The position numbers were made by a program, and so were the translations under genes. From Candidatus Omnitrophota bacterium (lineage in GTDB: Bacteria; Omnitrophota; Gorgyraeia; Zapsychrales; Zapsychraceae), in assembly GCA_020429915.1 (NCBI GenBank), contig JAGQKV010000019.1, forward strand, positions 85,727-149,726: 64,000 bases of DNA, given 5' to 3'. The notes below the pieces were generated by a model that did no database searches, had not been told where the DNA came from, and saw nothing but the letters and a program-made list of their open reading frames with translations. Numbering within the stretch: the first letter of the stretch is position 1; every line of letters begins with the position of its first letter. Of the stretch, positions 6,123 through 62,819 are shown in pieces.

Positions 6123-6985
6123 TGATCCTCGAACTGAAAAACATCACCAAGACGTATCCGCTTAAGTCCGGCTTCGGTACCAAGACCGGCAAGGTTGTGC
6201 GCGCGGTCAACAATGTCAGCCTGGGCGTGGAGAAGGGGGAGAGCATCAGCCTGGTCGGCGAATCGGGGTGCGGGAAGACGACCCTGGCGCGGGTGATCAT
6301 GCAGCTGATTCGGCCCGACGGCGGTAACGTTCTCTATGACGGGAAAAAGGTTGACCGGACCAATATCGCCACCTACCGTAAGGACGTGCAGATGGTCTTC
6401 CAGGACCCTTATAGCAGTCTGGACCCGCGGTACACGATCCGCCGGGTCATCGATGAAGGCATGGCCCTCGACAAGACGCGCTTCAAGACCCAGCAGGAGC
6501 GCGAGATGCGTATCCAGAAGATGCTCGGGGCGGTCCAGTTGAAACAGGACATGCTCGGCCGGTATCCGCATGAGTTCAGCGGCGGCGAACGCCAGCGCAT
6601 CGCCATCGCCCGCGCGCTGGTTCTCAATCCGACGCTGTTGATCCTGGATGAAGCGGTCTCCTCGCTCGATGTGCTCGTTCAGGAAGAGATCCTCAAGCTG
6701 CTGACGTCATTGCAAAAAGATTTTAACCTCACCTACGTGTTTATTTCCCACAACCTGAAGGTCGTCAAACGGATCAGCCGGCGCGTGGCCGTCATGTACA
6801 AAGGCAAGATTGTCGAACTGGCCAAGACCGAGGACATCTTCAATAATCCGTTGCATTCGTATACGAGGGATTTATTGTCGGCGGCGGTGGACTACAAGTC
6901 GGTGATACGCGATATGGAAATCCGCATACCGGACGGGGCCCAGCTGGAAGACAAGGGGGGCGGGCATTGGGTTATGCCGGAATAG
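6122..6985 (+). CDS. ABC transporter ATP-binding protein (OppF/DppF-like).
   Basis: Walker A GESGCGKT, signature FSGGERQR, Walker B LILDEAVS. Confidence 0.92.
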   Translation: MILELKNITKTYPLKSGFGTKTGKVVRAVNNVSLGVEKGESISLVGESGCGKTTLARVIMQLIRPDGGNVLYDGKKVDRTNIATYRKDVQMVFQDPYSSLDPRYTIRRVIDEGMALDKTRFKTQQEREMRIQKMLGAVQLKQDMLGRYPHEFSGGERQRIAIARALVLNPTLLILDEAVSSLDVLVQEEILKLLTSLQKDFNLTYVFISHNLKVVKRISRRVAVMYKGKIVELAKTEDIFNNPLHSYTRDLLSAAVDYKSVIRDMEIRIPDGAQLEDKGGGHWVMPE

Positions 6986-7083
6986 AGGACGGGATTAATT
7001 TTGGATAAATTCCGAATCTTCGAATTTTCGAGACAATCTCGAATCTTCGAATCAACGAATCAGTTAAACGGCCGTTAAGTCTT

Positions 7084-9219
7084 ATGTTATCACTTAGATT
7101 TTGGAGAAACGTAAATCGTTGGATCGGCTGGATCGCGCTGGCTGTGCTTTTCGGTCTGACGATCCTGGTGACTAACATCGAGATCAAGGATGTGGACCTG
7201 TGGCTGCATTTGGCATCGGGACGGCATATCCTCGAGACGATGGGCATCCCGGCCCAGGACTTTCTCTCCTTTACCGTCAACAACCGGACCTGGAACAATC
7301 ATGAGTGGCTGTTCCAGATCATCACCCAACTGAGTTTTGAAGCGTTCGGCCCCGGCGGGCTGATCAATATCCGGGTGGTGGTGGTCTGTATGGTCCTGAT
7401 GCTGCTGGTGATGATCGGCTACAATGACCGCCGTTTGGGATTGACCGTGTTCCTGCTGGTCCTGGTCCTGCAGACATTCATGCTACGCCTGCAGCTGCGG
7501 CCGGATATGTTCAGCCTGCTGTACTTTATTCTGTTTATGTACACGCTCGCGGTGCAGATCGGCCAGCGCAGCTCATTGATATTTCTCTTTATCATCCAGG
7601 TGATGTGGGTCAACACGCACGGATTCTTTATCTTCGCGCCGGTACTGATCCTGCTGATGATCATCGCGGAATGGGCCAAACGCAACGTTAAGCTTCCCTA
7701 TGACTGGAACGCGGTCGGACGTTATACCGATGAGGAATTCACCCGGCTGTGCTGGGCGCTGTTGGTGGTGACGCTGGCATGCTTTGTGAATCCGCATCCG
7801 ATCCAGGGCGCGATCTATCCGCTGCAGGTCCTCACGTCGCTCGGCGGGGACACATCGATTTTCTTTCAGCACATCAAGGAGTTGGAAAAGCCGATCCGTT
7901 GGGACAATCTGCTGATGTGGCAGCAGAACTGGTCCTACCGGCTGCTGATCGTGCTGTCGACGCTGAGCTTCATCCTGAACCGCCGGCGGCTGGACATCGG
8001 GATGTTCGTGTTGTGGGTGATCTTCCTGATCTTTTCCCTGAATGCCTTGCGCAACATGATCTTCTTCGCGGTGATCGCGTATTTGGTCATCCTGATCAAT
8101 GTCCAGCACATCCGCTGGCGGCGGATCTTTTCGCCGGTCCTGCTGAAGAAGCGCCGGCTCAAGTACATGGGGTCGCTGGTCTTCAAGGGGATCCTGATCA
8201 CGTGGATGATCAACACCGGCTTGGACTTGTCGACGCACGGCTATTTCACATTCGATACGATGGAACGCAAAAGTGAGTTCGGCGGGATCACGCTCAAAAA
8301 TTATCCCTACCGCTCCGCTGATTTTCTGGTCGAAAACAAGATCAAGGGGAACTTCTTTAACGACTTCAACTCCGGCGCGTACCTGCTCGGCCGCGCGCAT
8401 CCGGATATCAAGGTCTACATGGACGGGCGCACCGAGGTGTACGGACCCGACTACTTCAAGACATACCTGAAGATCTGGAGGGGGGACGAGGAGCTCTTCC
8501 ACGAGCACGTCGCCAAATACAATATCACCGGGGCCTTTCTGAATTCCATACAACGCCCGGCCCCGGCGCGGTTCATACGGCACCTGTACCAAGATCCGGA
8601 ATGGGTGCTGGTCTATTTTGATTTCGACGCGGCGATCTTTCTGCGCGACATCCCCGCCAACCGGGAATGGATCGACAAGTTCGCGATCAACCTGGAAGAC
8701 TATGTGACCCCTAAGGTCGACATCGTTCCGATCGCCACCAAGCGCATCATTCCCTACGAGCATATTCAGCGCGCGCAGGCCCTCTTCGACATCGGTTTCC
8801 CGGACAAGGCCCGCGACGAGGCCTTTGAGGCGCTGCGCATTTACCCCAATGAGGCCGAGGCGCTCAAGGTCCTGGGCAAGGTGGCGGTGCTGCAGGGGGA
8901 ATACAGCAAGGCCTTTGCCATCCTGCGTAACGGTCTGCTCGTCAACAGCCGCGACAACGAGCTCCGCTATTATTTTGGCGTGAGCCTGTTTCATCTCGGC
9001 CGGTTCGAGGAGGCGGAACAGCAGATGCAGCGGGTGCTGGCCGCCAATCCGCGCAATACCAAGGCCCTGGTCCTGACCGCGTTGATCTACGCCTCCCAGG
9101 GCAAGACGGACATCGCGCGGCAACTTTGGCCCCGGCAGGACGGGGAGTTGTTCACGGTGGAGGAAACCGTGGCGGAGATCAATCCCAACAAAGAGCTGCT
9201 CGGCACATTGGAGTTGTGA
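7084..9219 (+). CDS. Large polytopic membrane protein with a C-terminal TPR array. Putative GT-C-type glycosyltransferase of an unrecognised family. Paralog 1 of a tandem pair.
   Basis: 711 aa with about 11 predicted TM segments in the first roughly 400 aa. Asp-rich first loop IEIKDVDLWLHL. TPR-like C-terminus (EAEALKVLGKVAVLQGEYSKAF...). Shares many motifs with the downstream ORF (WNNHEWLFQ, NTHGFF, LNRRRLDI, ERKSEFGGI, FNDFNSGAYLLGR, DGRTEVYGP). Confidence 0.8.
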   Translation: MLSLRFWRNVNRWIGWIALAVLFGLTILVTNIEIKDVDLWLHLASGRHILETMGIPAQDFLSFTVNNRTWNNHEWLFQIITQLSFEAFGPGGLINIRVVVVCMVLMLLVMIGYNDRRLGLTVFLLVLVLQTFMLRLQLRPDMFSLLYFILFMYTLAVQIGQRSSLIFLFIIQVMWVNTHGFFIFAPVLILLMIIAEWAKRNVKLPYDWNAVGRYTDEEFTRLCWALLVVTLACFVNPHPIQGAIYPLQVLTSLGGDTSIFFQHIKELEKPIRWDNLLMWQQNWSYRLLIVLSTLSFILNRRRLDIGMFVLWVIFLIFSLNALRNMIFFAVIAYLVILINVQHIRWRRIFSPVLLKKRRLKYMGSLVFKGILITWMINTGLDLSTHGYFTFDTMERKSEFGGITLKNYPYRSADFLVENKIKGNFFNDFNSGAYLLGRAHPDIKVYMDGRTEVYGPDYFKTYLKIWRGDEELFHEHVAKYNITGAFLNSIQRPAPARFIRHLYQDPEWVLVYFDFDAAIFLRDIPANREWIDKFAINLEDYVTPKVDIVPIATKRIIPYEHIQRAQALFDIGFPDKARDEAFEALRIYPNEAEALKVLGKVAVLQGEYSKAFAILRNGLLVNSRDNELRYYFGVSLFHLGRFEEAEQQMQRVLAANPRNTKALVLTALIYASQGKTDIARQLWPRQDGELFTVEETVAEINPNKELLGTLEL

Positions 9220-9226
9220 CAGTATT

Positions 9227-11581
9227 ATGAGCGAGATGGGAACCAAAATTCTGGAAAAGGCGAACATCTATGTCGGCCTGTTCGTGATCGGCGCGTTGTT
9301 CGGTCTTTTGATCTTTGTCTCGGGGGTTGAGATCAAGGACCTGGATCTGTGGTTGCACCTGGGCGTGGGCAAGTACATCATGCTGAGCGGATCGGTGCCG
9401 CAGGAGGATCTGTTTAATGTCGTGACCACCGGCCACTTCTGGAATAACCATGAGTGGCTGTTTCAACTTTTGGTGTGGAATGTCTTTTCGCAGTGGGGGG
9501 AGCAGGGCCTGTCGCAGATGCAGACGGTGGTGGTGACCTTCACGATGATGCTGCTGTTTTTTATCGGGTACAGCAAGGAGCGACAGTTCATCATGATCCT
9601 GTCGCTGATCTTCGTCTACTTCGTGTATATCTCGCGGTTTACCATCCGGCCGGACCTGTTCAGTCTGACTTTTTTTACGCTCTACATCTTTATTATGTCG
9701 CTGCACATCGACAAGCGTTGGTCGCTGCCGGCGCTGGTCATCGTGCAGGTCCTGTGGACGAATTTTCACGGGTTCTTTTTCTTCGGGCCGCTGTTTGTCC
9801 TGATCGGCCTGTTTTCGGAATGGATGAAACGTCACGTCAAGCTGCCGTGGGAGTGGAACCAGTCCGGCCGGTTGACCGACGAGGAGTACGGCCGGTTAAA
9901 GATCGCGCTGGTGCTGGTGTCGGTGGCGTGCCTGGCCAATCCCCAGGGCGTGGAAGGCGCGCTCTACCCGATCAAGGTATTCTTTTCGCTATCCGGCGGA
10001 GACAGCATCTTCTTCGATTATATCCAGGAACTCAAACCGCCCGTGGAATGGGGCGATTTCTTCGGCGGGGGAAATTACGCGTACTACAAGCTGATGATCA
10101 TCGTCTCGGCGCTCACTTTTTTCCTCAACCGGCGCCGGCTGGATATCAGCGCGTTGATTCTGTGGATTATCTTTCTGCTGTTTTCCCTGAAGGCGATTCG
10201 CAATATCTCGTTCTTCGCCTTTACCGCCTACCTGTGCATCATCTCCAACTGCTACTATCTGGCAGCCGCCGATGTAATCCCGCTGCGGTTCAACAGCAAA
10301 CGCTTCGTTTACATCACCGGCATTTTTTGCAAGATCCTGCTGCTCGGTTTTATCGCGGAGAATTACAACGTGATGGCCGAACGCGGGTATTACGACTTCG
10401 ACAAGTACCAACGCAAAAGCGAGTTCGGAGGCATCGCCAAGCGGACCTACCCGTCCGGGGTGGCGGACTTCATCATCGAGAACGGGATCAAGGCCAATAT
10501 CTTTAATGACTTCAATTCGGGCGCCTATTTGATCGGCCGCACCTTTCCCAATATCAAGGTGTTTATGGACGGCCGCACCGAACTGTACGGCGGAGAATTC
10601 TTCCGGCAGTATCTCAAGATTTGGGAGCAAGGCAATCCCGAGACCTTCGAGGCCATGGTCGCGAAATATAACCTGACCGGTGCCTTTCTTAATTCCTCCC
10701 GCGAGGATATTCCCAAGGAGATCATCAGATATCTCGATCGGCAGAAGGAATGGGTCCCGGTGTATTTTAATTCGGACGGGGTCTTCTTTTTGAAAGATGT
10801 CCCGGAACACCGCGCCATCATCGAGCGCTACGCGGTGGACTTCGAGAACTGGCAGCCGCCGTATACCGATTTGCTTAGGATGGGGATCGCCAAGGCCGAA
10901 CCTTATGAGCACAATTACCGGGCCTTCACGCTGGAAAGCATGGACTACGATGAAGCCGCGCTGCGCGAGGCCAAAGAGGCCCTGCGTATCAAGCCGAACT
11001 ATGCGGACCCGCTGAAACTGATCGGTAAGGTTTTTGCCAAACGCAAACAGTTCCGCTCGGCCTTTGAGGCGTTCCGGCACGCCTGCCTGTATGATCCCGG
11101 CAACAAAAAGCTGCGATACAATCTGGCGCTGTCGTATCTCGATATGTCGGAGTACGAGGGCGCAATTGCGGCGTACCGGGATATTCACGCGGCGTGGCCG
11201 ACCGATCCCAAGGCGGTTTTCTTTCTGTCCAAGGCCTATGCCTTTAACCGGCAGTATGACGAATCTTTGAAGATGTTCCAGGAGGCCGTAAAGATGGCCC
11301 CGGCCAGCGCGGGCGACGCGGTCAACATTGCCGATGTGATCTTCGCAGACGGCAAGTACGATACGGCCATTGAGATGTACCGGACGGCGCTGGATATCAA
11401 TGATAAATTACCCGCGGTCCATCGCAAAGTCGGCGAGGCCTATCGGGCGCTGGATCAGCCGGAACTGGCCGAAAAGCACCTGAAGCGGGCAGCCGAATTA
11501 AAACCTCCGGAAGACGAGGCCGCGGAAGACGCGGATGATTCTCCAGCGCCTGCTCCCGCTGTCGTGAACAGCGCTGAATAA
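9227..11581 (+). CDS. Large polytopic membrane protein with a C-terminal TPR array. Paralog 2 of the tandem pair, same putative GT-C-like family.
   Basis: 784 aa. Asp-rich loop VEIKDLDLWLHL. Same motif set as 7084-9219. Longer TPR region plus an acidic/Pro-Ala tail. Confidence 0.8.
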   Translation: MSEMGTKILEKANIYVGLFVIGALFGLLIFVSGVEIKDLDLWLHLGVGKYIMLSGSVPQEDLFNVVTTGHFWNNHEWLFQLLVWNVFSQWGEQGLSQMQTVVVTFTMMLLFFIGYSKERQFIMILSLIFVYFVYISRFTIRPDLFSLTFFTLYIFIMSLHIDKRWSLPALVIVQVLWTNFHGFFFFGPLFVLIGLFSEWMKRHVKLPWEWNQSGRLTDEEYGRLKIALVLVSVACLANPQGVEGALYPIKVFFSLSGGDSIFFDYIQELKPPVEWGDFFGGGNYAYYKLMIIVSALTFFLNRRRLDISALILWIIFLLFSLKAIRNISFFAFTAYLCIISNCYYLAAADVIPLRFNSKRFVYITGIFCKILLLGFIAENYNVMAERGYYDFDKYQRKSEFGGIAKRTYPSGVADFIIENGIKANIFNDFNSGAYLIGRTFPNIKVFMDGRTELYGGEFFRQYLKIWEQGNPETFEAMVAKYNLTGAFLNSSREDIPKEIIRYLDRQKEWVPVYFNSDGVFFLKDVPEHRAIIERYAVDFENWQPPYTDLLRMGIAKAEPYEHNYRAFTLESMDYDEAALREAKEALRIKPNYADPLKLIGKVFAKRKQFRSAFEAFRHACLYDPGNKKLRYNLALSYLDMSEYEGAIAAYRDIHAAWPTDPKAVFFLSKAYAFNRQYDESLKMFQEAVKMAPASAGDAVNIADVIFADGKYDTAIEMYRTALDINDKLPAVHRKVGEAYRALDQPELAEKHLKRAAELKPPEDEAAEDADDSPAPAPAVVNSAE

Positions 11582-45661: not shown

Positions 45662-47485
45662 GTGATGAAGTTTTCTTCTCTGAGTAAAGCCTGGTTGGCG
45701 ACGCCGGCCTTCGTGCTGGCCGCTTTTCTCCTTTACGGAAACACCCTCTCCAGCGCCTTTCATTTCGACGATTTCATCTTTATTGTGCAGAATCCGGAAC
45801 TGACCGATCCCTTTGATATCCGCACGATCTGGGCAGAAGGCAGCGCTCCGACGAGATTTATCGCTTACTGGACCTTCGCCTGGAACTACTATTTTCATCA
45901 GTACGACGTGACCGGCTATCATGTCGTCAATATTTTGATTCACGCGCTGAACGCGATGTTGGTTTATTGGGTCACCGGGTTGCTGGCGACCCGTCTGGCC
46001 GAATCAAACCGGATGCCCGCCAGCCGTGTGCGGGTCGCCGCTGTCATCGCGGCCTTGATTTTCCTGTGTCATCCGCTGCAAACCCAGGCGGTCACGTACT
46101 TGTGCCAACGTTTTGCCTCGTTGGCGACGCTATTCTATGTGCTCGCCGTCGGGTGTTATGTGCGGGGGCGCATGACCGCGCGACCGGTATGGTGGGCCGC
46201 CGCGGGCGTTGCGGCCTTGGCCGGGATGTTCACCAAGCAGATCGTCATGACCCTGCCTGTGACGGTGCTCCTAACGGAATGGTTTTTCTTTCGCGAGGCG
46301 AGGATCACTCCGCGCGCGGTTTGGCGTCACTGGAGATTAATGGCGATGGGAGGGGCGGTATTCCTGCTAATCCCGGCGGTCTATTCTTTCAATGTGCAAT
46401 CCATCCTGCTGCGGGAGTATGAATCCTTGTCCCACCGCGGCGATACACTTGATTTGTGGACCTATTTCCTGACCCAGTCGCGGGTTATCTGGACTTACAT
46501 CCGGTTGCTCGTGTTCCCGGTCGGGCAAAACCTATTGTATGATTTTTCCGCCTCTACCGTGTGGTGGGAGCCGAAGGTCATCGCGGGTTTCAGCGGCATT
46601 ATCGCGCTGACGGCGGCGGCCCTGGTGTGGCGCCGGCGCTATCCGTTGGCTGCCTTCGGTGTCTTGTGGTTTTTTACGACGCTGCTGGTGGAGTCGAGCA
46701 TTATTCCCATCCGGCACGTGATCTTTGAGCACCGCCTGTATCTGCCGATGTTCGGGGTTGCGCTGGTCGCGGCTCAAGTCTTTACCGGACGGCGGCTGCC
46801 GGTCAAAGCGGGGATCGCTTTGGTCACCGCGGCCGTCGTAACGCTTTCCGTGCTGACGATCCGCCGCAATGCCGTGTGGCGCGACGGCATTACCTTATGG
46901 TCGGATGTCCTCGAGAAGTCTCCCGGCCTGATCCGGCCTTACACCCATTTGGCCACCGCCTATTTGAACCAGGGGAATTATGAGCGGGCACTGGAAATCT
47001 ATTCGGCGGCCATCGCGACCGATCCCGAACGGGCCGAGTCCTACAACAACCGCGGAAATGTGTACACGGTCCTCAAACAATATGACCGTGCCCTCGACGA
47101 CTACCGGCAGGCGCTGGTGTTGGACCCGACACTGGAAAAGACGTACAATAACGTCGGGATCATCTACAATAAACGAAAACAATTTGCCGAGGCCCTCGAC
47201 CACTATAACCGGGCGATCGCGCTCAATCCGTCCAATGCCGGCGCGTATTTTAACCGGGCCAATGTGTATCTGCAGCGGAATGAACTCGACAAGGCCTTTG
47301 CCGATTATACGCGCAGTATCGAGAGTAACCCGTTTCAGAAAAAAGCGTATTACTACCGTTCGCAGATTTACGCGACGGGTGGAGATTTTGAGAACGCGTT
47401 GCAGGATGTCCTCGAGGCCCAGTCACTGGGTGTGAAGGTGGATAAGCGGTATGTCGAAGATTTAAGGAAGAAGGTGGCGCCATGA
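45662..47485 (+). CDS. TMTC/PMT-like polytopic membrane protein (DUF1736-type) with C-terminal TPR repeats. Putative protein O-glycosyl(mannosyl)transferase. Paralog 1.
   Basis: 607 aa. Loop-1 motif NTLSSAFHFDDFIFIVQNPEL. HPLQTQAVTYLCQRFASLATLFYV, RLLVFPVGQNLLYDF, IPIRHVIFEHRLYLP. C-terminal TPRs (YNNRGNVY...). Confidence 0.8.
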   Translation: MMKFSSLSKAWLATPAFVLAAFLLYGNTLSSAFHFDDFIFIVQNPELTDPFDIRTIWAEGSAPTRFIAYWTFAWNYYFHQYDVTGYHVVNILIHALNAMLVYWVTGLLATRLAESNRMPASRVRVAAVIAALIFLCHPLQTQAVTYLCQRFASLATLFYVLAVGCYVRGRMTARPVWWAAAGVAALAGMFTKQIVMTLPVTVLLTEWFFFREARITPRAVWRHWRLMAMGGAVFLLIPAVYSFNVQSILLREYESLSHRGDTLDLWTYFLTQSRVIWTYIRLLVFPVGQNLLYDFSASTVWWEPKVIAGFSGIIALTAAALVWRRRYPLAAFGVLWFFTTLLVESSIIPIRHVIFEHRLYLPMFGVALVAAQVFTGRRLPVKAGIALVTAAVVTLSVLTIRRNAVWRDGITLWSDVLEKSPGLIRPYTHLATAYLNQGNYERALEIYSAAIATDPERAESYNNRGNVYTVLKQYDRALDDYRQALVLDPTLEKTYNNVGIIYNKRKQFAEALDHYNRAIALNPSNAGAYFNRANVYLQRNELDKAFADYTRSIESNPFQKKAYYYRSQIYATGGDFENALQDVLEAQSLGVKVDKRYVEDLRKKVAP

Positions 47486-49731
47486 ATTTAGCCAAGTCCG
47501 CGGCCGTCCGGCTGAGCGCCGCGGTGATTATTATTGTGACCGTCGGACTGCTGGCCTACGCGAACAACTACCGCAACAGCTGGCACTTCGACGACCAAAG
47601 CTATATCGTGCAGAATCCGACCATCCGCTCGCTGGACAACTTCAGGGGGATGTGGGATCGGTTGAGCGCCCCGGGGCGGGTTGTCGTTCTGTACAGCTTC
47701 GCTCTCAATTACCATTTCGGCGGGACCGATGTTTTCGGATACCATGTCGTTAACAATGCGATTCATGTTACCGCCGCGGTGTTCGTCTTCGGCATTGTCT
47801 GGATGCTGATGGCCACACCCCGGATGGCGGGATCACCTCCGGCCCGTGGCCGTTGGTTGGTGGCCCTGTTCACAGCATTGATCTTTGTCAGTCATCCGTT
47901 GCAGACGCAGGCGGTTACTTATATTTGTCAACGTTTCGCGTCGTTGGCGACCCTGTTTTATGTTATGAGCGTGTTTTGGTATCTGTGCGGCCGGTTACGC
48001 CGTAGGGGGGCGTCCGTCTATTTTGTCCTGGCTGCGGTGTCCGCGGTCCTGGGGATGTTCAGCAAGCAGATCGTGATTACGTTACCGGTTGTAATCCTGA
48101 TTATCGAATGGCTTTTTTTCGGGGCGTTTACACGGCACGGGGGAAGGCTCCGTATTCCCTGGAAAGTCATCGTCCCCTTGGCCGTGCTGCTTATGATTAT
48201 TCCCGCGCTGTATTCATTTCGGGCCGGGGCCATTCTCTCGATCAAGCACAAATCCTCGGGATCATACCGCGGTGAACTCATCAACCGGCAATCGTATTCA
48301 TTGACGCAATTGCGCGTTATTCCGACGTACATACGCCTGCTCGTGTTTCCCGTGGGACAAAACCTCTTGTATGATTTCAAGACATCCAAGAGTCTGACGG
48401 AACCCAAGACGCTGGCCGGATTAATACTGATCCTGAGTTTGATCGCGCTCGCCCTGGCGCTGCGCCGACGGAACCCGCTGGCGGCCTTCGGAATCTTTTG
48501 GTTTTTTGTGACACTTTCGGTTGAATCCACTGTCATACCGATCCGGCACGTCATTTTTGAGCACCGGGTGTATTTGCCGAGCGTCGGATTTTGTTTGTTG
48601 GCTGCCTCGCTGGTCTATCAGTGGTCCCGGCAACCCCGCCGGGCAGCCGCGGTATTGTCTGTGATTGTTTTGGCCCTGACCGTGCTGACGCACGAACGCA
48701 ACAAGGTGTGGCGGGATGAACTGACGTTGTGGGAAGACGTCAAAGAAAAGTCGCCGCACAAGATGCGCCCGTATCTGAATACCGGCATCGCGCATTCGGC
48801 GAACGGGGAGTTTGAAAAGGCTATTGCCGATTTTCAGATCGCGCTGGAAAAGGTCCCCAACAGCATCATGGCGCTCAATAATCTCGGGATCACCTACACC
48901 CGGCAGCATCGTTATGAAGAGGCCCTCGCCGCGTTTGACCGCGCGTTGGCCATCAGCGACAAATGGGAGGAGGTGTGGAACAATCGCGGCGATGTCTTTC
49001 GGCACCGCGGGGAATTTGCCGCGGCCTTGGCCGACTATGACCGGGCCTTGTCCATCAATCCGCAGATGTACCAAACATTAAGCAATCGCGGGGTGGTTCT
49101 GGCACACTTGGGCCGCGACGAAGAGTCCTTGGCTGATTTTCAACGGTCGCTGGAGATCGCGCCGGGTTTTATTGAGGCCCACCAAAATCGTGGGAATTTG
49201 CTGGGCCGGATGCGCCGCTACGAAGAGGCCATTGCAGATTTCACGGTGGTCATTCGCAGCAATCCACGCATTCCGCAAATCTATAACAACCGGGGCAACG
49301 CCTACCGGCGGCTTAAGCAATATGACCTGGCACTGGCCGACTACAACCGGGCGATTGACCTCGACCCGGATTTTGCCGAGGCCTACAATAACCGGGGAGT
49401 GGTGTATCGTGAACAGGGTCGGGCAGACCTTGCCCTCAAGGACTACGATAAGGCCCTGTCACTCGATCCCCGCTACGTCACCGCATACAATAACCGCGGA
49501 AATCTTCATAAGGTGGAAGGGCGCTACGGAGCTGCCCTTGAGGACTTCAACACCGCGTTGAAGATCGAACCGGAAAACCGGTACGTGTATTTTAACCGTG
49601 CCAAGACGCATTTAAGCCGGCATGATTTTCAGGCCGCCCTGCGCGATGCTGAAATATCCCGGCATCTCGGCTACAGTCAGGCGGCGCCGTTTATCAACCG
49701 TATCAAGCAGGTGATGCATGCCCGGCCTTGA
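47482..49731 (+). CDS. TMTC/PMT-like membrane-TPR protein, paralog 2.
   Basis: 749 aa. WHFDDQSYIVQNP and the same conserved blocks as 45662-47485. 8-9 C-terminal TPR units. ATGA overlap with paralog 1. Confidence 0.8.
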   Translation: MNLAKSAAVRLSAAVIIIVTVGLLAYANNYRNSWHFDDQSYIVQNPTIRSLDNFRGMWDRLSAPGRVVVLYSFALNYHFGGTDVFGYHVVNNAIHVTAAVFVFGIVWMLMATPRMAGSPPARGRWLVALFTALIFVSHPLQTQAVTYICQRFASLATLFYVMSVFWYLCGRLRRRGASVYFVLAAVSAVLGMFSKQIVITLPVVILIIEWLFFGAFTRHGGRLRIPWKVIVPLAVLLMIIPALYSFRAGAILSIKHKSSGSYRGELINRQSYSLTQLRVIPTYIRLLVFPVGQNLLYDFKTSKSLTEPKTLAGLILILSLIALALALRRRNPLAAFGIFWFFVTLSVESTVIPIRHVIFEHRVYLPSVGFCLLAASLVYQWSRQPRRAAAVLSVIVLALTVLTHERNKVWRDELTLWEDVKEKSPHKMRPYLNTGIAHSANGEFEKAIADFQIALEKVPNSIMALNNLGITYTRQHRYEEALAAFDRALAISDKWEEVWNNRGDVFRHRGEFAAALADYDRALSINPQMYQTLSNRGVVLAHLGRDEESLADFQRSLEIAPGFIEAHQNRGNLLGRMRRYEEAIADFTVVIRSNPRIPQIYNNRGNAYRRLKQYDLALADYNRAIDLDPDFAEAYNNRGVVYREQGRADLALKDYDKALSLDPRYVTAYNNRGNLHKVEGRYGAALEDFNTALKIEPENRYVYFNRAKTHLSRHDFQAALRDAEISRHLGYSQAAPFINRIKQVMHARP

Positions 49732-57108: not shown

Positions 57109-57702
57109 ATGAAAAACTCGTGGCTGATTTGGGTGTTTGTGGTTGGGATCGTACTGACGATTTTAATAGCGTTTAATTATCAGGGGGCGCAGGATACCGT
57201 TCCCCTCAGTGAGATCTTCCCGGAAACCGAGACGTATCCGTTGGAAATAGAATATGTTGACGAGCAGCCGGTCAGCGAACCGCCCGCGATCGCGCGTACC
57301 GCACCGGCAGCAAGTCAGCCGGTGACGCAAATCGTCCGGACGCCGACCGAGCCGCCGAGTCCACCGGTGCCGGAGCCGGTCGTCGCAAAAGTCGCTGCGG
57401 CACCGCCTAAACCTGCGCCTGCGGCCGCTCAAACTCCCGCGGCCGCCCAAACAACTGCGGCCAAGCCATACAAATACAGCATCCAGGTGGCATCGTTCAA
57501 GGACAAAGATAAGGCGCAGCAGAAGGTCGAAGAGCTGAACCAGAAGGACTACCAGGCCTTTCTCGTTTCCAAGGATCTCCGCGACAAAGGCACTTGGCAT
57601 CGTGTGTATGTGGGTAAATTTGATTCCAAATCCGAAGCCGACAGCTATCTGCCGAAGGTCAAAAAGAATTATTCATCCAGTTTTATTATCGCCACCAAAT
57701 AA
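57109..57702 (+). CDS. SPOR-domain (peptidoglycan-binding) membrane-anchored protein.
   Basis: Start at the ATG with an AAAAGGAGAAC RBS. One TM helix, Pro/Ala-rich linker. C-terminal SPOR domain YSIQVASFKDKDKAQQKVEEL...WHRVYVGKFDSKSEA. Confidence 0.7.
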   Translation: MKNSWLIWVFVVGIVLTILIAFNYQGAQDTVPLSEIFPETETYPLEIEYVDEQPVSEPPAIARTAPAASQPVTQIVRTPTEPPSPPVPEPVVAKVAAAPPKPAPAAAQTPAAAQTTAAKPYKYSIQVASFKDKDKAQQKVEELNQKDYQAFLVSKDLRDKGTWHRVYVGKFDSKSEADSYLPKVKKNYSSSFIIATK

Positions 57703-57710
57703 ACTTGAAG

Positions 57711-57765
57711 GAATGCCATTCCCCATGCGATCCCCGGAAACGGGGCCATGGGGATTTATACTTTT
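57711..57765 (+). terminator. Rho-independent terminator (nested hairpins plus T-rich tail).
   Basis: GGAATGCCATTCC, then CCCCATG...CCCCGGAAACGGGG...CATGGGG, followed by ATTTATACTTTT. Confidence 0.5.
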
Positions 57766-57814
57766 ATGACCTTCAGGCCCGGGCCGAAAGGGACGGGCGG
57801 AGCCCCATCCGCAA

Positions 57815-59563
57815 TTGGAGCCTATGAACGCCAAACTCAGAAATATCGGTTCCGGTCTGCTGATTTTCCTGCTGGGTTGTCTGGTGTATGCCAACGGTTT
57901 GAACGTGCATGGGTTCGAATTCCGTGACGATGAGGTGTTCTATAAAAAGAGTACCCAGGAAATGGTGGCGACCGGCGAGATCCTTTCGCCGAAGTACTTC
58001 GGCGAAGATCGGTTCCAGAAGCCCATACTCTACTACTGGTTCATCCTCGCCGCCTACCGGGTATTCGGAGTGAGCTGGTTTGCCGCTCGCATCACTTCGT
58101 GTCTGTTTGCCGCCGGTGCCTTGGTCCTGACCTGGTTAATTGCGAAATCCCTGTTTGACCGCCGCACGGGATACGTCAGCGTCTTCATTCTGATGACGAT
58201 GCCGCTGTTCTTTCGTCATGCCAAGAATGCCGTCCCGGACATGGCGCTCAATTTCTTTATCGTCTTGGCCCTGTATCTGTTTATCCGTTTCGTTGAAGAC
58301 GGGCACCGCTGGCGTTTTGCCGCCGGTTTCTTCCTGGCCTGCGGCGCCGGATTTATGGTCAAGGGTTTTGCCGCGTTGCTGTTTCCCTACCTGACCGTGA
58401 TCCTGTACGCGGTCTGGGAACGGGACTGGAGCATCCTGCGGGATATGCGCTTCTTCCGCGGCACTCTGCTGTTTCTGGCCGTGGTTCTGCCGTGGTTTAT
58501 TTTTATGACCGTTGTTCACGGAAGCGAATACATCGAGTACATGTGGTTCCGGGAGACCACGGACCGCTTGTTGAAGGTGGAGGAAGGCCATTTCGTGCTA
58601 CGCAAGATCGGAGACTTTCTGCGTCACTTCGGATTTTATGTCGCGGTCCTCTTCCAGCAGTATGCCCCGTGGTGTCTCGTTTCCGGCGCCGCGCTGGTGG
58701 CTGCATTTGTCGGTTGCCGGCGGGGAGGGGACCACCGGGAGCCCTACCGGTTTTTGATGTTGTGGATTGCGACCGTAATCGTCTTTTTCTCCTTCATGTA
58801 TTTTACGATCAGCCACTACATGCTGGTCTTATCCACACCGCTGGCCATAGCTACCGCCGCGTTCGTGCTGCGTCCCCTGCCCGACACACGCTGGCTGGCT
58901 GTGCTGATGACATGGTTACGCCGGCATCTGCTTTTTCTGGCTTATTTTGTGTTGCTTGCCGTCTACGTATTCGTGCTGCTGTTTTTCGGCGGTGCTCCGC
59001 TCGTCCTGGCGGGGGCGGTCGGCGCCCTGGGTGTGACGATCGGTATTCTAGGAATTCGCACTCCCGGTCCGGTTGCGCCGGTGGCCCTGCTGGCGGCCCT
59101 GCTGGCGGCGGTGATGTTCCAAACCCCGTATCTTTCACAGCTGGGCCTGACGACCCACACTGCCTGGCGAAAATTTGCCGGGGAAATTCAGCGGAGGGGC
59201 CATCAACCTTATACGGTCGGAGTGGCCAGCCATGATCTCCATGAAAAAGAGCTGCAGATCTATTTTCCGAGCCAGCGCATCGGCAAATATGCCAACGACA
59301 ATGAGGAGTACACGGTCTATATGTTGCGCCAGCTCTTCGGCAATAAGCAAAGAGTCTATTGTCTGATGACGGAAAAAGACTATAATAAGTACTTAAAAGA
59401 CACCCGGGAACCGGTGGAGATCATTCGGCGGGATTATATGCTGCGAAAGAGGCTGAATATTGACGGCGGATTCTTCATGGCCCTCTTGCGGTTGGATCGC
59501 CGGACGATCTTTCACTATTTCATGGAAAATGTGGTGTTGATCAAGAGGGAGCAACGTGTCTGA
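57815..59563 (+). CDS. ArnT/PMT-family (GT-C fold, GT39/GT83-like) polyprenyl-phosphate-sugar-dependent glycosyltransferase.
   Basis: 582 aa with about 12 TM segments. Loop-1 motif FEFRDDEVFY. KPILYYW, RHAKNAVPDMALNFF. Confidence 0.8.
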   Translation: MEPMNAKLRNIGSGLLIFLLGCLVYANGLNVHGFEFRDDEVFYKKSTQEMVATGEILSPKYFGEDRFQKPILYYWFILAAYRVFGVSWFAARITSCLFAAGALVLTWLIAKSLFDRRTGYVSVFILMTMPLFFRHAKNAVPDMALNFFIVLALYLFIRFVEDGHRWRFAAGFFLACGAGFMVKGFAALLFPYLTVILYAVWERDWSILRDMRFFRGTLLFLAVVLPWFIFMTVVHGSEYIEYMWFRETTDRLLKVEEGHFVLRKIGDFLRHFGFYVAVLFQQYAPWCLVSGAALVAAFVGCRRGGDHREPYRFLMLWIATVIVFFSFMYFTISHYMLVLSTPLAIATAAFVLRPLPDTRWLAVLMTWLRRHLLFLAYFVLLAVYVFVLLFFGGAPLVLAGAVGALGVTIGILGIRTPGPVAPVALLAALLAAVMFQTPYLSQLGLTTHTAWRKFAGEIQRRGHQPYTVGVASHDLHEKELQIYFPSQRIGKYANDNEEYTVYMLRQLFGNKQRVYCLMTEKDYNKYLKDTREPVEIIRRDYMLRKRLNIDGGFFMALLRLDRRTIFHYFMENVVLIKREQRV

Positions 59564-60281
59564 TCCGGAATCCCGGGAAAATCGCGTCAAAAAGGTCATT
59601 TGTTCGGTCATCTTCCCGGTCTATAATGAGGAAGAGTCTCTGGAGCCGTTGCTGTCCGAAGTGCTCACCGTGATGTCCGGTCTGAACAAGCCTTACGAGA
59701 TTATCTTTGTGGACGACTCCTCATCGGATGACTCCCCGAGAATTTTAAGTCGGTTCCGGGACGAGCTTCCGGAGATTATCCGCATCGTCACCTTGCCGGA
59801 GCGCAGCGGTCAGACCAAGGCGTTGCGGGTTGGCCTGGATAAGGCCCGCGGTGAAGTTGCCGTGACGCTGGACGCGGATCTGCAGAATGATCCTGCGGAT
59901 ATCCCGGCGTTGTTACAGAAGCTGGAAGAGGGATTTGACTGTGTTTGCGGTTGGCGGAGAGACCGTCAGGATACGCTTGTGAAGGCGGCGTTATCCAAGC
60001 TGGGAAATATCCTGCAACGGATATTTACCCGGCTGACCATTCATGACGTCTCTTGTACCCTGCGGGCCTACCGGCAAGAGTGTATCGCGCGCATTCCGCT
60101 CAACTGGGAGGGGCAGCATCGGTTCATACCCTTGTGCCTTTCGCTCCAGGGATTTAAGGTGGGGGAGATCGAAAGTCACCACCGCGCGCGCCGGTTCGGT
60201 GCGACCAAATACAGTCACAAAAGGATTTTTCGGGTCGTGACCGATTTTTTCAGAATACTTAAAGCGGGAGGCAAGGCGTGA
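59556..60281 (+). CDS. GT2-family polyprenyl-phosphate glycosyltransferase (ArnC/DPM1-like).
   Basis: CSVIFPVYNEEESL, IFVDDSSSD (DxD), LDADLQND. 241 aa. Overlaps the upstream GT-C gene. Confidence 0.85.
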   Translation: MSDPESRENRVKKVICSVIFPVYNEEESLEPLLSEVLTVMSGLNKPYEIIFVDDSSSDDSPRILSRFRDELPEIIRIVTLPERSGQTKALRVGLDKARGEVAVTLDADLQNDPADIPALLQKLEEGFDCVCGWRRDRQDTLVKAALSKLGNILQRIFTRLTIHDVSCTLRAYRQECIARIPLNWEGQHRFIPLCLSLQGFKVGEIESHHRARRFGATKYSHKRIFRVVTDFFRILKAGGKA

Positions 60282-60604
60282 CGGGCGAGATGTTTTTGGG
60301 AATGGAAATGAAGTACTGGTTGATTATCGGCTTTATCGGGCAACTCACCTTCGGGGCGCGGTTTATCGTGCAATGGATATGTTCGGAATTCCGCCAGGAA
60401 AGCCACATTCCGGTGGCCTTTTGGTATCTGAGCATCGTGGGCGGGTTGATTCTGCTGATGTACGCGATTTCGCGACAGGATCCGGTTTTCATCATGGGCC
60501 AGTCGATGGGTGTATTGATTTATGCCCGTAATTTACGGCTGATTTACAAGAAAAAACGGCGCCGGACCACCTTTAAACAATCGGTGGAGCTGTCCGGCAC
60601 TTGA
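60278..60604 (+). CDS. Small membrane protein of the lipid-A-biosynthesis N-terminal (LAB_N) domain family.
   Basis: 108 aa with 3 TM segments. YWLIIGFIGQLTFGARFIVQW. Commonly partnered with ArnC-like GT2 enzymes. Start may be the internal Met. Confidence 0.55.
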   Translation: MTGEMFLGMEMKYWLIIGFIGQLTFGARFIVQWICSEFRQESHIPVAFWYLSIVGGLILLMYAISRQDPVFIMGQSMGVLIYARNLRLIYKKKRRRTTFKQSVELSGT

Positions 60605-60688: not shown

Positions 60689-61066
60689 GTGAAGATACTT
60701 ATTGTTGATGATTCCGTTATGGACCGGCGGTTGACGATCAATCTGCTCCGTAAAAACAACGTCACCAATGATATCCTGGAGGCGGTTGACGGCGAGGAGG
60801 GATTGGAGGTCCTGAGTCAACATTATAAGGAAATTTGCCTGATCTTGCTCGACTGGCAGATGCCGAAAATGGATGGGATCGAATTCATGAAAGGGGTGGT
60901 TAAGGTCCCCGAAGTCGCTTCGATCCCGATTGTGATGATCACCGCTTCCGGTTCCGATGACAGCAAGCGGGAGGCGCGTGACGCGAATCCCAGCTTGGCC
61001 GGCTATGTGGTCAAGCCTTTCAAACCGGCTGAACTTCTGGAAACGATCCAACCTTATCTTAAGTAA
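60689..61066 (+). CDS. Single-domain response regulator (CheY-like receiver).
   Basis: 125 aa. ILIVDDS, phospho-acceptor D in ILLDWQMPKMDG, and K in VVKPF. Confidence 0.85.
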   Translation: MKILIVDDSVMDRRLTINLLRKNNVTNDILEAVDGEEGLEVLSQHYKEICLILLDWQMPKMDGIEFMKGVVKVPEVASIPIVMITASGSDDSKREARDANPSLAGYVVKPFKPAELLETIQPYLK

Positions 61067-61079
61067 ACGGTGTACCCGC

Positions 61080-61676
61080 ATGGTGCATATACCGCTTGAC
61101 GACAACGATCAACTCGACGAACGCTACATCCAGGCGTTGATGCTTTCCCGTGTCATTAAGCGCATTCTCAAGAATCGCGCCGACATCGAGCTGTCCTCCA
61201 ATCCCGTCTTTATCGAAAAACCCATCGCGGAATTCATGAATCGTCTGAAGGTCGACAGTATCGACAAGTTCAACGAAACGACCTATATTTCATCGATTAA
61301 TTTCTACAAAGACCGTGCTTCACTCGACAAACACGAAGCCCTCGGCGCTTTGATCATTTATGTCGGCGCAAGTTATCTGGTGGAGTTGGTCAAAAAACTT
61401 GACTATCCGGAGGTGGACGAGGATGATCCGGAGGCTATGCTGGATGCTATCGGAACATTCTGCAATCTGATCGCCGGCAACTTTAAGGCCGGCCTGACGC
61501 AGTTGGGATATATCGAGCTGGTCATGTCGCATTTTTCCGGATACGAAAACAAGGTGCTACTCGGGGTCGACTTCTCACCCAATGAATCCCGCATGTATGA
61601 AATCGAATTCGAAATCCGCGGCGAGAAGCGGATCGTAGCCGAGTTCTCCATGGCGTCCATACCTCTGGAAACCTGA
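61080..61676 (+). CDS. Hypothetical protein, possibly CheX/CheC-like phosphatase fold.
   Basis: 199 aa. MLDAIGTFCNLIAGNFKAG resembles the CheC/CheX D/E..G..NI..G motif. Adjacent to the orphan receiver. Low confidence. Confidence 0.35.
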   Translation: MVHIPLDDNDQLDERYIQALMLSRVIKRILKNRADIELSSNPVFIEKPIAEFMNRLKVDSIDKFNETTYISSINFYKDRASLDKHEALGALIIYVGASYLVELVKKLDYPEVDEDDPEAMLDAIGTFCNLIAGNFKAGLTQLGYIELVMSHFSGYENKVLLGVDFSPNESRMYEIEFEIRGEKRIVAEFSMASIPLET

Positions 61677-61750
61677 TTGTCACCGGCCCGGCAGCCGAAC
61701 CCGCGGGCATACCTGTTAGCCGAACGTTTCAATACCGAAAGGGATTACTT

Positions 61751-62383
61751 ATGAGCGGAAAAAGCAAACAATGGATCACCGTTGCCGTTGTCGTGGCCGT
61801 CGTGGCTGTGGTGGCGGGCGTTCGTTTATACCTGAACAATCAGGCCGTCAACGCCGTCACCGGACGGACAAAGGGAAATCCTCAAGCCAAGGTAAAGATC
61901 GTCGAGTTCATTGATTTTCAATGTCCTGCCTGCGCGCAGGGTGCGAAAATGCTGAATGCCCGCTTTAAGCAGTATCCGGATCAGCTTCATTTGGAAATGA
62001 AGTACTTCCCGCTCAAGATGCACGCGCATGCCTTTCTCAGTTCACGTTTTGCCGAGTGTGCCGCCCGTCAGCAGAAATTCTGGGAATACCATGATCAGTT
62101 GATATATAAACAAAAGGATTGGAGCCAAGTCGTGAATGCGTATCCTATGTTTCAACAGATGGCCCAGGAGGTCGGTGTGGACATGGACCAATTACACGGG
62201 TGCCTGAACGACACGCGCGTGGACAAGGTAATCAGTGAGCATCAGACCGAAGGGCGCAAACGCGGGGTTCGCAGTACGCCGACATACTACGTCAACGGAG
62301 ATATGGTCGTGGGAACGCGGGATTTGGACAAGCGCATCAAGGAGTTGCTGGAAGAACCGGATGAACAGGGAGGCCAAAATTAA
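61751..62383 (+). CDS. DsbA-family thiol:disulfide oxidoreductase, membrane-anchored.
   Basis: 210 aa. N-terminal TM helix. CxxC active site FIDFQCPACAQG. Confidence 0.75.
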   Translation: MSGKSKQWITVAVVVAVVAVVAGVRLYLNNQAVNAVTGRTKGNPQAKVKIVEFIDFQCPACAQGAKMLNARFKQYPDQLHLEMKYFPLKMHAHAFLSSRFAECAARQQKFWEYHDQLIYKQKDWSQVVNAYPMFQQMAQEVGVDMDQLHGCLNDTRVDKVISEHQTEGRKRGVRSTPTYYVNGDMVVGTRDLDKRIKELLEEPDEQGGQN

Positions 62384-62819
62384 TCCGTTTGTCATCATTC
62401 GATTAGTGATCGGGACGATATTTGTCGTCTCCGGGTTCGAGAAGGCGATCACACCGTACCAGAACTTTCAGTACGTCATCCAGGCCTACCGGCTTTTTCC
62501 GGAGTTTGCCGAACCGCTCATCGCCCAGATATTTCCCTGGATCGAACTGCTCACCGGTATATTTTTGATATTGGGTTTATGGTTGCGCTGGGCCCTGACC
62601 GTCTCGGGTTTGATGCTGGCCGGCTTTCTGACGATTGTGGGCCAGGCCTTGATACGCGGGTTACCGATCGGCGAGTGCGGTTGTTTCGGGTCGTTGATCA
62701 GTCTGCCGCTCTACGGTGTTTTTACGATGGATACGATCCTGATGACCGGCACGGTTCTGGCCTATAAGAACTTGGCCAAGACCTCCCGATGGGCGATCGA
62801 CGGCCGGTCAAATGAGTAG
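62361..62819 (+). CDS. MauE/DoxX-like membrane protein (probable partner of the adjacent DsbA-like protein).
   Basis: 152 aa with 4 TM segments. Conserved GECGCFG motif. Confidence 0.6.
   Translation: MNREAKINPFVIIRLVIGTIFVVSGFEKAITPYQNFQYVIQAYRLFPEFAEPLIAQIFPWIELLTGIFLILGLWLRWALTVSGLMLAGFLTIVGQALIRGLPIGECGCFGSLISLPLYGVFTMDTILMTGTVLAYKNLAKTSRWAIDGRSNE

Follow-up and report, generated by a model that had tools for sequence, protein, structure and literature searches.

The passage of polyprenyl- and dolichyl-phosphate monosaccharides across membranes is poorly understood. The proposed bacterial flippases, ArnE/F and GtrA, are little characterised, and we know of no identified scramblase for the eukaryotic dolichyl-phosphate sugars (Dol-P-Man and Dol-P-Glc) and of no established molecular role for MPDU1, a disease gene. 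Here we analyse a module of three genes from a Candidatus Omnitrophota bacterium, located in a 64,000-nucleotide stretch of contig JAGQKV010000019.1 (hereafter, the window). The genes encode a polytopic glycosyltransferase of the C type (GT-C), a family 2 glycosyltransferase (GT2) without transmembrane (TM) helices, and a small membrane protein of the LAB_N family. In the explanation that we favour, with moderate confidence, they would form a relay that carries a sugar on polyprenyl phosphate across the inner membrane.

The module follows the functional scheme of the Arn, Gtr and Rgt systems, and lies outside the ArnT and ArnC equivalogs and the Gtr families. The Arn system of E. coli and Salmonella (ArnC, ArnE/ArnF and ArnT) combines a GT2 that loads undecaprenyl phosphate with a small membrane component and a periplasmic GT-C, and the module has the same three-part layout; its GT-C has the catalytic and lipid-phosphate residues of ArnT, which is also its closest fold, and its GT2 shares the DADLQN motif of ArnC. 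Unlike Arn, the module comes without the tailoring enzymes ArnA, ArnB and ArnD. The C-terminal hairpin and both TM helices of ArnC are absent from its GT2, through loss or from the outset, its small partner is a three-TM LAB_N protein with a predicted SemiSWEET fold, unrelated to the four-TM ArnE/F, and its GT-C lacks the zinc site and the ArnT_C domain, with both enzymes scoring far below the equivalog cut-offs. The clusters for O-antigen glucosylation (GtrA, GtrB, GtrC; yfdG, yfdH and yfdI in E. coli) are likewise compact and join a small membrane protein to a GT2 and a polytopic transferase, but GtrB, besides having TM helices, stands further off (79 bits, 25% identity), and GtrA is unrelated to LAB_N.

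GT2 synthases that lack TM helices and work with a separate small membrane protein are known from DPM1 with DPM2/DPM3, from mycobacterial Ppm1/Ppm2 and from PpgS/Rv3632. The module resembles these split synthases in this respect, but their partner proteins come from families unrelated to LAB_N. In the Rgt system of rhizobia (RgtE, RgtA-D/F, LpxE/LpxF) and the Lgm system of Bordetella, ArnC-like GT2s and ArnT-like GT-Cs modify lipid A or the core with a sugar that is untailored or lightly tailored, a likeness drawn from descriptions of these systems. RgtE is the bactoprenyl-phosphate-galacturonic acid (GalA) synthase, RgtA-D/F are GT-C transferases, and LpxE/LpxF are phosphatases. Mesorhizobium has rgtE, rgtF and lpxE in one cluster (PMC5644692, PMC7663294). 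For Bordetella, lgmD, whose product we considered as a conceivable LAB_N protein, is described as dispensable. In a similar way LAB_N modules lie beside PAP2 phosphatases in several Proteobacteria, and Azospirillum lipoferum, an organism with GalA on its lipid A, has a module of GT2, LAB_N and a GT39 transferase. Unlike Rgt, the window module has no PAP2 gene, and the parts of the Rgt literature consulted do not mention a LAB_N component. What appears to be new in the architecture is the pairing of a split, TM-less synthase with a SemiSWEET-fold partner; within a partial coverage of the literature we found no paper on the association of TM-less GT2s with LAB_N, and the genes are routinely annotated generically.

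The module and its two glycosyltransferases

The three open reading frames (ORFs) lie on the + strand with overlapping consecutive stop and start codons, as a first-pass annotation of the window had described (Table 1). Between GT-C and GT2 the overlap of stop and start measures 8 nucleotides (nt); between GT2 and LAB_N it is 4 nt (GTGA). Because of these overlaps translational coupling is likely, and the three genes would likely form a single coupled operon. Their order is kept in orthologous contigs of 38–83% identity. An alternative GT-C start, a TTG at 57815, would give a product of 582 aa; the ATG at 57824 is judged likelier, and residues are numbered from it throughout.

The GT-C enzyme matches the Pfam families PMT_2 (4.4e-23; 82.7 bits, cut-off 26.1) and PMT (2.1e-16; 60.7 bits, cut-off 22.7), and the ArnT of Cupriavidus (CmArnT, 5EZM) is the one protein of solved structure to which it is related in sequence. 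The AlphaFold2 (AF2) model of the protein (predicted local distance difference test [pLDDT] 90.5, predicted template modelling score [pTM] 0.91) contains about 13 membrane helices, so the earlier count of roughly 12 was fair, and a C-terminal alpha/beta domain that is presumed, on the model, to form the acceptor side. In a Foldseek search ArnT was the best match (5F15 and 5EZM, E 3e-18 and 1e-16, TM-score 0.63–0.69), with the runner-up, oligosaccharyltransferase (OST), ten orders of magnitude behind (E 9e-8); Pmt1/2/4 gave partial alignments (E 1e-4 to 2e-2). The Pfam and Foldseek matches together uphold the initial description of the enzyme as ArnT/PMT-like. Its loop-1 motif, FRDDEVFY, is present as first reported, and the catalytic residues expected of an ArnT/PMT enzyme are kept (D36/E37, K66, D139, R248 and Y332; Table 1). 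An alignment of 45 homologues shows no variation at K66, D139 or R248, and at least 90% conservation at D36, E37 and Y332.

Other features set the enzyme apart from ArnT. In the alignment to CmArnT, the ArnT zinc ligands E84, H265 and H267 are replaced by Q65, R243 and T245. The Pfam scan gave no match to MIR domains and none to ArnT_C (PF18583), unlike in ordinary ArnT-like proteins, and the score against the ArnT equivalog of NCBIfam is 116 bits, where the cut-off is 567. Full-length orthologues, 31–83% identical, form a sharply bounded group, and ordinary ArnT-like proteins drop to 100 bits or less. The orthologues with a named source (about 10 of 97) come from Omnitrophota metagenome-assembled genomes, except for one partial Lysobacterales sequence, and for one the contig is recorded as Planctomycetales. 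Judged by these scores and residues, the GT-C is not an ArnT orthologue.

For the GT2 (Glycos_transf_2, 5.4e-33) the best solved relative is ArnC (147 bits), followed by GtrB (79 bits) and PfDPMS (73 bits), in agreement with its first description as ArnC/DPM1-like. The match spans residues 12–233, against ArnC 8–226, and the two proteins are about 35–38% identical, depending on the alignment. In polyprenyl-phosphate GT2s the DAD of DADLQN serves as the catalytic DXD (ArnC 100–105, GtrB 94–99, PfDPMS 89–94; bioRxiv 10.1101/2025.01.29.634835). Both GT2 motifs singled out by the first-pass annotation, DDS and LDADLQND, are present, within IFVDDSSSDDS and TLDADLQND, but the DDS that it had read as the DxD is not the catalytic element, which is the DAD of the second motif. 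R134 and K143 align to ArnC R128 and R137, proposed ligands of undecaprenyl phosphate.

Against the ArnC equivalog of NCBIfam the GT2 scores 160 bits, with a cut-off of 529, and covers only positions 4–226 of the 316 in the profile. PgaC matches with 50 bits over residues 12–133 only, and PpgS weakly, with 38 bits; GT2s of the processive or soluble type align with no more than roughly the first 100 residues; the NCBIfam ranking agrees with that of the solved structures. The GT2 has no TM segment (maximum 19-residue hydropathy 0.76), and ends just past the second juxtamembrane helix, where the first TM helix of ArnC begins (about ArnC residue 233; the ArnC helices are at 236–254 and 270–288). 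TM domains are present in ArnC, GtrB and DPMS alike, and the 120 closest homologues of the GT2 are all 223–254 aa long. On this evidence the GT2 is not an ArnC orthologue. A processive, cellulose-synthase/PgaC-type GT2 was also considered, and is ruled out by the partial PgaC match, the lack of TM helices and the absence of a QxxRW motif from the sequence. In a rough neighbour-joining tree, built with two reference sequences and without support values, 46 LAB_N-linked GT2s from many phyla, including those beside LAB_N-GT-C fusions, form one clade, the sister of E. coli ArnC with GtrB as outgroup. The placement is thus with ArnC, not with GtrB or the processive synthases, which had been named as alternatives.

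The conserved catalytic residues of the two enzymes, read with what is known of their families, support the chemistry first proposed for the module, in which a polyprenyl-phosphate sugar would be made inside and transferred outside. Gene calls and Pfam matches on an identical public contig show no sugar-modifying family in flanks that reach about 7.5 kb upstream and 10 kb downstream of the module, and the other window genes scanned, in a set of about half of the window ORFs, are housekeeping genes with no sugar-tailoring gene among them. This bears out the remark that no arnA/arnB-type genes lie nearby, and suggests a common nucleotide sugar as the substrate; the donor sugar would thus probably be common and untailored. 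The first-pass annotation was also right that the sequence gives neither the sugar nor the acceptor. A crude hydropathy screen of the window found no small polytopic ORF of the GtrA/ArnE kind.

The LAB_N protein and its genomic associations

The third protein matches the LAB_N family (PF07578) at 1.8e-31 (108.5 bits, against a gathering score of 26.7), so its identification as a small LAB_N membrane protein holds. LAB_N proteins are about 90–110 aa long with three TM helices, and the window copy has a basic C-terminal tail that presumably faces the cytoplasm. In 22 sequences of different phyla 24 positions are invariant, and the conserved residues, which include R28, Q32, S36, E37, Y50, S52, Q75, Y82, R84 and N85, form one polar stripe per helix.

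A profile search of the PDB with LAB_N retrieved only SemiSWEETs, at E 0.03–0.1. The AF2 model has a pLDDT of 75, and its top 16 Foldseek matches are 15 SemiSWEETs and one SWEET, the best SemiSWEETs reaching target-normalised TM-scores of 0.80–0.85 with root-mean-square deviations of 1.3–2.3 Å and a probability of 1.0. The MtN3_slv family is matched weakly by 14 of the 22 LAB_N members, and LAB_N reaches 13.8 bits where the threshold is 23.7. No phmmer match connects LAB_N with ArnE or ArnF, and hhalign gives a probability of 0.3% for a relation to GtrA (PF04138; E. coli YfdG). As modelled, LAB_N has a SemiSWEET-like triple-helix-bundle fold.

Searched with the profile, 1.84 billion representative proteins yielded 2,802 LAB_N proteins, 1,895 of them at E <=1e-10. 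The family is large, with about 1,900 clusters (50% identity) at that threshold, and extremely conserved. Among the best 150 family matches 89 are 191–300 aa long, almost all of them with LAB_N present twice. Such tandem proteins (2xLAB_N, about 200–240 aa) dominate the top of the list, and the ones examined have a hydrophobic segment between the repeats, a layout consistent with the 3+1+3 arrangement (seven TM helices) of SWEET and PQ-loop proteins. The tandem forms imply that the functional unit is a parallel pair of bundles, which for single-copy LAB_N would mean a parallel dimer. LAB_N is like the SemiSWEET/SWEET/PQ-loop proteins in its predicted three-TM triple-helix bundle and its natural 3+1+3 tandem forms, and may be like them in working as a parallel dimer. 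It is unlike SemiSWEETs in that the sequence similarity is marginal, MtN3_slv scores stay below threshold, and the sugar-binding residues and the proline of the PQ motif are not kept (Trp/Asn to Leu/Gln, and PQ to VQ).

The median identity to the window proteins at 28 distant loci is 59% for LAB_N, 35% for the GT2 and 26% for the GT-C, and LAB_N therefore appears as the invariant core of a module with diversifying enzymes. Our incomplete coverage of the literature on LAB_N/PF07578 turned up passing mentions only and no functional study.

A scan of one genome per species gave at least 595 confirmed LAB_N relatives, and 80 loci were retrieved. In 73 loci the sequence reaches far enough upstream for the pair to be judged, and in 60 of them LAB_N directly follows a GT2 homologue of the same strand. 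This count comes from our own crude ORF calling: the greedy caller gave no LAB_N gene in 12 high-GC loci, and stop-to-stop ORFs were used for the pair statistics instead. The pair occurs in Acidobacteriota, Proteobacteria, Nitrospinota, Planctomycetota, Omnitrophota and others, and the callable GT2 genes encode about 225–295 aa, almost always without a predicted TM helix. Of the 44 large polytopic proteins encoded no more than three genes away from LAB_N, 34 are PMT_2 GT-Cs, placed either upstream of the GT2, as in the window, or downstream of LAB_N. PAP2 phosphatases account for 7 of the 23 small membrane neighbours (with canonical PAP2 motifs at loci L062, L076 and L078); a lipid A acyltransferase lies at locus L090, and LptF/G with acyltransferases at L089. 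Complete modules are also found in cultured organisms. Plasmid AZO_p5 of Azospirillum lipoferum 4B (L094) carries GT2, LAB_N and GT39 genes in a row (AZOLI_RS27860/55/50), the second annotated as 'lipid-A-disaccharide synthase N-terminal domain-containing protein', and pILYOP01 of Ilyobacter polytropus (L096) carries a GT2-LAB_N-GT39 cluster with two GT39 genes and a short-chain dehydrogenase/reductase, which adjoins a divergent two-component system. LAB_N modules also occur on a replicon of the Gram-positive Paenibacillus.

Gene fusions complete the pattern. The best 150 family matches include 11 long fusions, all with an N-terminal 2xLAB_N, whose partners are PMT_2 GT-Cs (5), GT87 GT-Cs (4), an LpxL-type acyltransferase (1, P0394) and a calcineurin-like phosphoesterase of the Metallophos family (1, P0416). 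At the two GT-C fusion loci inspected, one PMT_2 and one GT87, a short GT2 gene (262–265 aa) lies directly upstream and in one case overlaps. Chlamydial LpxB is a further LAB_N fusion, shown by a LAB_N match to NCBIfam NF002173, and none of the 80 loci holds a GT2-LAB_N fusion. LAB_N is tied to the producer GT2 by gene order and to the consumer GT-C by fusion.

Two variants of the neighbourhood may be mentioned here. At L089, the most distant full-length orthologous locus (38% identity), genes for a FeeM/Acetyltransf_5 protein and a PlsC-type acyltransferase (5391–6987 of that locus) precede the module; the pair resembles OlsB/OlsA of ornithine-lipid synthesis, and LptF and LptG are nearby. 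In the Nitrospina-type loci L009, L012, L017 and L023 what comes after the GT2-LAB_N pair, in some cases with a small ORF in between, is a 630–705-aa protein with 12–14 TM helices and not a PMT_2 member; those of L009 and L012, both scanned, gave only a weak match to Cyt_bd_oxida_I. This protein may represent an unrecognised GT-C family or a different consumer.

A proposed relay, the role of LAB_N and the acceptor

We consider it moderately probable that the three genes encode a polyprenyl-phosphate sugar relay across the inner membrane. In a well-supported initial step the GT2, as a soluble or peripheral enzyme, would load one sugar from a nucleotide sugar onto polyprenyl phosphate at the cytoplasmic face. 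LAB_N, as a parallel dimer of SemiSWEET/SWEET architecture, would be the membrane subunit that the GT2 is missing; its conserved cytoplasmic loop, SExxxESHIP, would be the docking site for the GT2, and it would translocate or present the polyprenyl-phosphate sugar to the periplasmic side, the part played elsewhere by ArnE/F or GtrA and akin to the action proposed for MPDU1 on dolichol-phosphate sugars. The GT-C would then bind the lipid-phosphate sugar through K66, R248 and Y332, a step well supported as chemistry, and move the sugar onto a periplasmic acceptor using D36, E37 and D139. We favour docking combined with translocation or presentation as the role of LAB_N because the GT2 has no membrane domain of its own, because fusions to GT-Cs would be pointless for a mere anchor, because the fold and the duplication pattern are of the transporter type, and because the pattern of conservation points to activity on an invariant part of the substrate.

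A wider proposal, which we put forward tentatively and short of calling it probable, is that LAB_N is a dedicated bacterial translocator or presenter of polyprenyl-phosphate monosaccharides, a half-size counterpart of MPDU1, in a universal relay of GT2, LAB_N dimer and GT-C. MPDU1 (Lec35), a member of the same clan as LAB_N, is required for all reactions that depend on Dol-P monosaccharides, and thus for their use by lumenal GT-Cs, the step at which LAB_N sits genetically (PMC3281891). CLPTM1L has been placed in the MPDU1 family (PMC3281891), and a further study identifies it as a lipid scramblase needed for glycosylphosphatidylinositol (GPI) synthesis (PMC9169118). If LAB_N is such a counterpart of MPDU1, the window operon would be a minimal, genetically clean example. 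The interest lies in what can be said of LAB_N as a family: the module in the window is an unremarkable Omnitrophota-type example, and its host, to judge from these genes, decorates an envelope component with a lipid-carried sugar, which is routine biology. The combination of GT2, LAB_N and GT-C offers a simple bacterial system for testing the flipping of lipid-linked monosaccharides, and Azospirillum, Paracoccus, Legionella and Ilyobacter are tractable carriers.

The fusions bear directly on whether LAB_N does anything beyond anchoring or activating the TM-less GT2, as a split-off TM domain of the ArnC/GtrB kind and after the manner of DPM2/DPM3, Ppm2 or Rv3632, with flipping spontaneous or left to an unlinked protein. 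Nine of the 11 long fusions are to a polytopic GT-C (PMT_2 or GT87), which needs no anchor, but LpxB, the LpxL-type P0394 and the Metallophos P0416 are cytoplasmic-face enzymes that need no flipping, and these fit an anchor or a lipid-binding role at least as well as a translocator. The strict complementarity by which TM-less GT2s adjoin LAB_N while TM-bearing ArnC has none would likewise suit an anchor, as would the predicted cytoplasmic location of the basic C-terminal tail and of the conserved loop 1; a simple anchor would not be expected to be far more conserved than its enzyme partners across phyla, to keep polar residues within the membrane, or to retain a dimeric SWEET-type architecture through tandem duplication. 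On balance we find a pure anchor or activator rather doubtful. That LAB_N is an ordinary SemiSWEET sugar transporter or a lipid A biosynthesis factor, beside glycosyltransferases by chance, is very improbable. Its fold, and a family name that derives from the chlamydial LpxB fusions, could be taken that way, but the SemiSWEET substrate-binding residues are not kept and MtN3_slv remains below threshold, and a chance association is rejected on the adjacency to TM-less GT2s in 60 of 73 loci across phyla and on the GT-C fusions. Several considerations, besides the cytoplasmic-face fusions, weigh against the relay with LAB_N as translocator or presenter. The confidence of the LAB_N model is moderate, the residues with which SemiSWEETs bind sugar and the PQ proline are changed, the synteny counts depend on crude ORF calls and the GT2 tree is a rough one, and we infer from sequence and predicted structure the flipping by LAB_N, the complex of GT2, LAB_N and GT-C, the donor and the acceptor.

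As acceptor, lipid A or the lipopolysaccharide (LPS) core would be most likely, a weakly supported part of the proposal. ArnT is the closest fold of the GT-C, and PAP2, lipid A acyltransferase and LptF/G genes lie beside related modules in other lineages. The lipid A of A. lipoferum bears alpha-1,1-GalA (PMC5644692), and this species carries a GT2-LAB_N-GT39 module. Other facts speak against LPS: no PAP2 or lipid A gene lies beside the module in the Omnitrophota clade of the window, where the only conserved neighbour is a SPOR-domain protein, and LPS is not a universal acceptor, given the modules of Paenibacillus. The SPOR gene lies directly upstream of the module at L001, L002, L084–L088, L021 and L028, and at none of the sampled loci of other phyla; it is retained even where the wider context differs (L087), and is also present in one locus labelled Planctomycetales. 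The SPOR protein may be a functional partner, the acceptor, or a mere case of lineage synteny. Transfer to a periplasmic or membrane protein in the manner of PMT O-glycosylation, for instance to the SPOR linker, or to a peptidoglycan-associated target at the division site, would accord with the SPOR gene upstream in every Omnitrophota-type locus, with its long Pro/Ala/Thr-rich linker, with the PMT/PMT_2 membership and DE motif of the GT-C, and with the lack of PAP2 or lipid A genes beside the module in this clade. We regard it as unlikely, though a serious alternative. In structure the GT-C stands far closer to ArnT (E 3e-18), whereas Pmt1/2/4 align with it in part only (E 1e-4 or worse), and MIR domains are missing from it; the SPOR linkage may be no more than inherited synteny, with a hairpin and a U-tract between the genes; and the module lies beside PAP2, lipid A acyltransferase and Lpt genes in other phyla. 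A genuine system for 4-amino-4-deoxy-L-arabinose (Ara4N) and polymyxin resistance, although among named families and solved structures ArnC and ArnT score best, is effectively refuted: the scores are far under the equivalog cut-offs (160 against 529 bits and 116 against 567 bits), nothing like arnA, arnB, arnD, arnE or arnF occurs in the flanks of about 7.5 kb before and 10 kb after the module or among the scanned window proteins, the GT2 is without the ArnC TM domain, and the GT-C is without the zinc site and ArnT_C.

Features and neighbouring genes in the window

Table 1. Positions, in window coordinates, of the module, its key residues and other features.
Feature	Position	Strand	Basis or remark
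GT-C, ArnT-like glycosyltransferase, 579 aa	57824..59563	+	ATG start per public gene calls, identical metagenomic contig
Loop-1 motif FRDDEVFY of GT-C	57920..57943	+	Sequence; D36/E37 correspond to ArnT D55/E56 and the PMT 'DE' motif
K66 of GT-C	58019-58021	+	Aligns to ArnT K85
D139 of GT-C	58238-58240	+	Aligns to ArnT D158
R248 of GT-C	58565-58567	+	Aligns to ArnT R270
Y332 of GT-C	58817-58819	+	Aligns to ArnT Y345
Span of K66/D139/R248/Y332 in GT-C	58019..58819	+	CmArnT alignment; polyprenyl-phosphate triad K85/R270/Y345 plus D158 in ArnT
Predicted C-terminal periplasmic alpha/beta domain of GT-C (about residues 458-579)	59195..59560	+	AF2 secondary structure
TM-less ArnC-like GT2, 241 aa, GTG start	59556..60281	+	Pfam, ArnC alignment, hydropathy
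DADLQN, DXD metal/catalytic motif of GT2 (residues 106-111)	59871..59888	+	Aligned to ArnC 100-105
LAB_N protein, 108 aa, three TM helices	60278..60604	+	Pfam, AF2 model, Foldseek
Bitopic SPOR-domain protein: N-terminal TM helix, Pro/Ala/Thr-rich linker, SPOR domain	57109..57702	+	Pfam SPOR 4.1e-17
GC-rich hairpin then U-rich tract, between SPOR gene and GT-C	57720..57767	+	RNA fold
TPR membrane proteins	7084-9219, 9227-11581, 45662-47485, 47482-49731	+	Two paralogous pairs

The hairpin sits in the 121-nt spacer before the GT-C gene, and the fold of 57700–57823 has an energy of -50.2 kcal/mol (z -2.27). It is possibly a terminator of the SPOR gene, an attenuator or another regulatory element; as a terminator or attenuator it could make the three genes a unit of their own. 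A simple terminator scan did not pick up this hairpin, and the promoter/terminator scan did no better than on shuffled sequence.

The tetratricopeptide repeat (TPR) membrane proteins form two adjacent paralogous pairs (41% and 44% identity), each protein with an N-terminal domain of eight or more TM helices and C-terminal TPR repeats. The first-pass annotation had taken TPR-fused proteins of the window for GT-C enzymes to which the GT2 could supply the lipid-linked donor; the membrane domains of all four gave no Pfam match even at E 1 and no PDB sequence match. The first loop of the second pair contains HFDD..QNP, TMTC-like by eye only. Similar TPR proteins are encoded a few genes upstream of the module at L086 and L088.

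Downstream of the module (60689–62819, + strand) the window encodes a CheY-like receiver, a CheX-like protein, a DsbA-like thioredoxin and a MauE/DoxX protein. This block is conserved in Omnitrophota relatives, and continues in L001 (12595–15919 of that locus, partly past the window end) with genes for Memo/AMMECR1 and an HTTM/DCC1-like protein.

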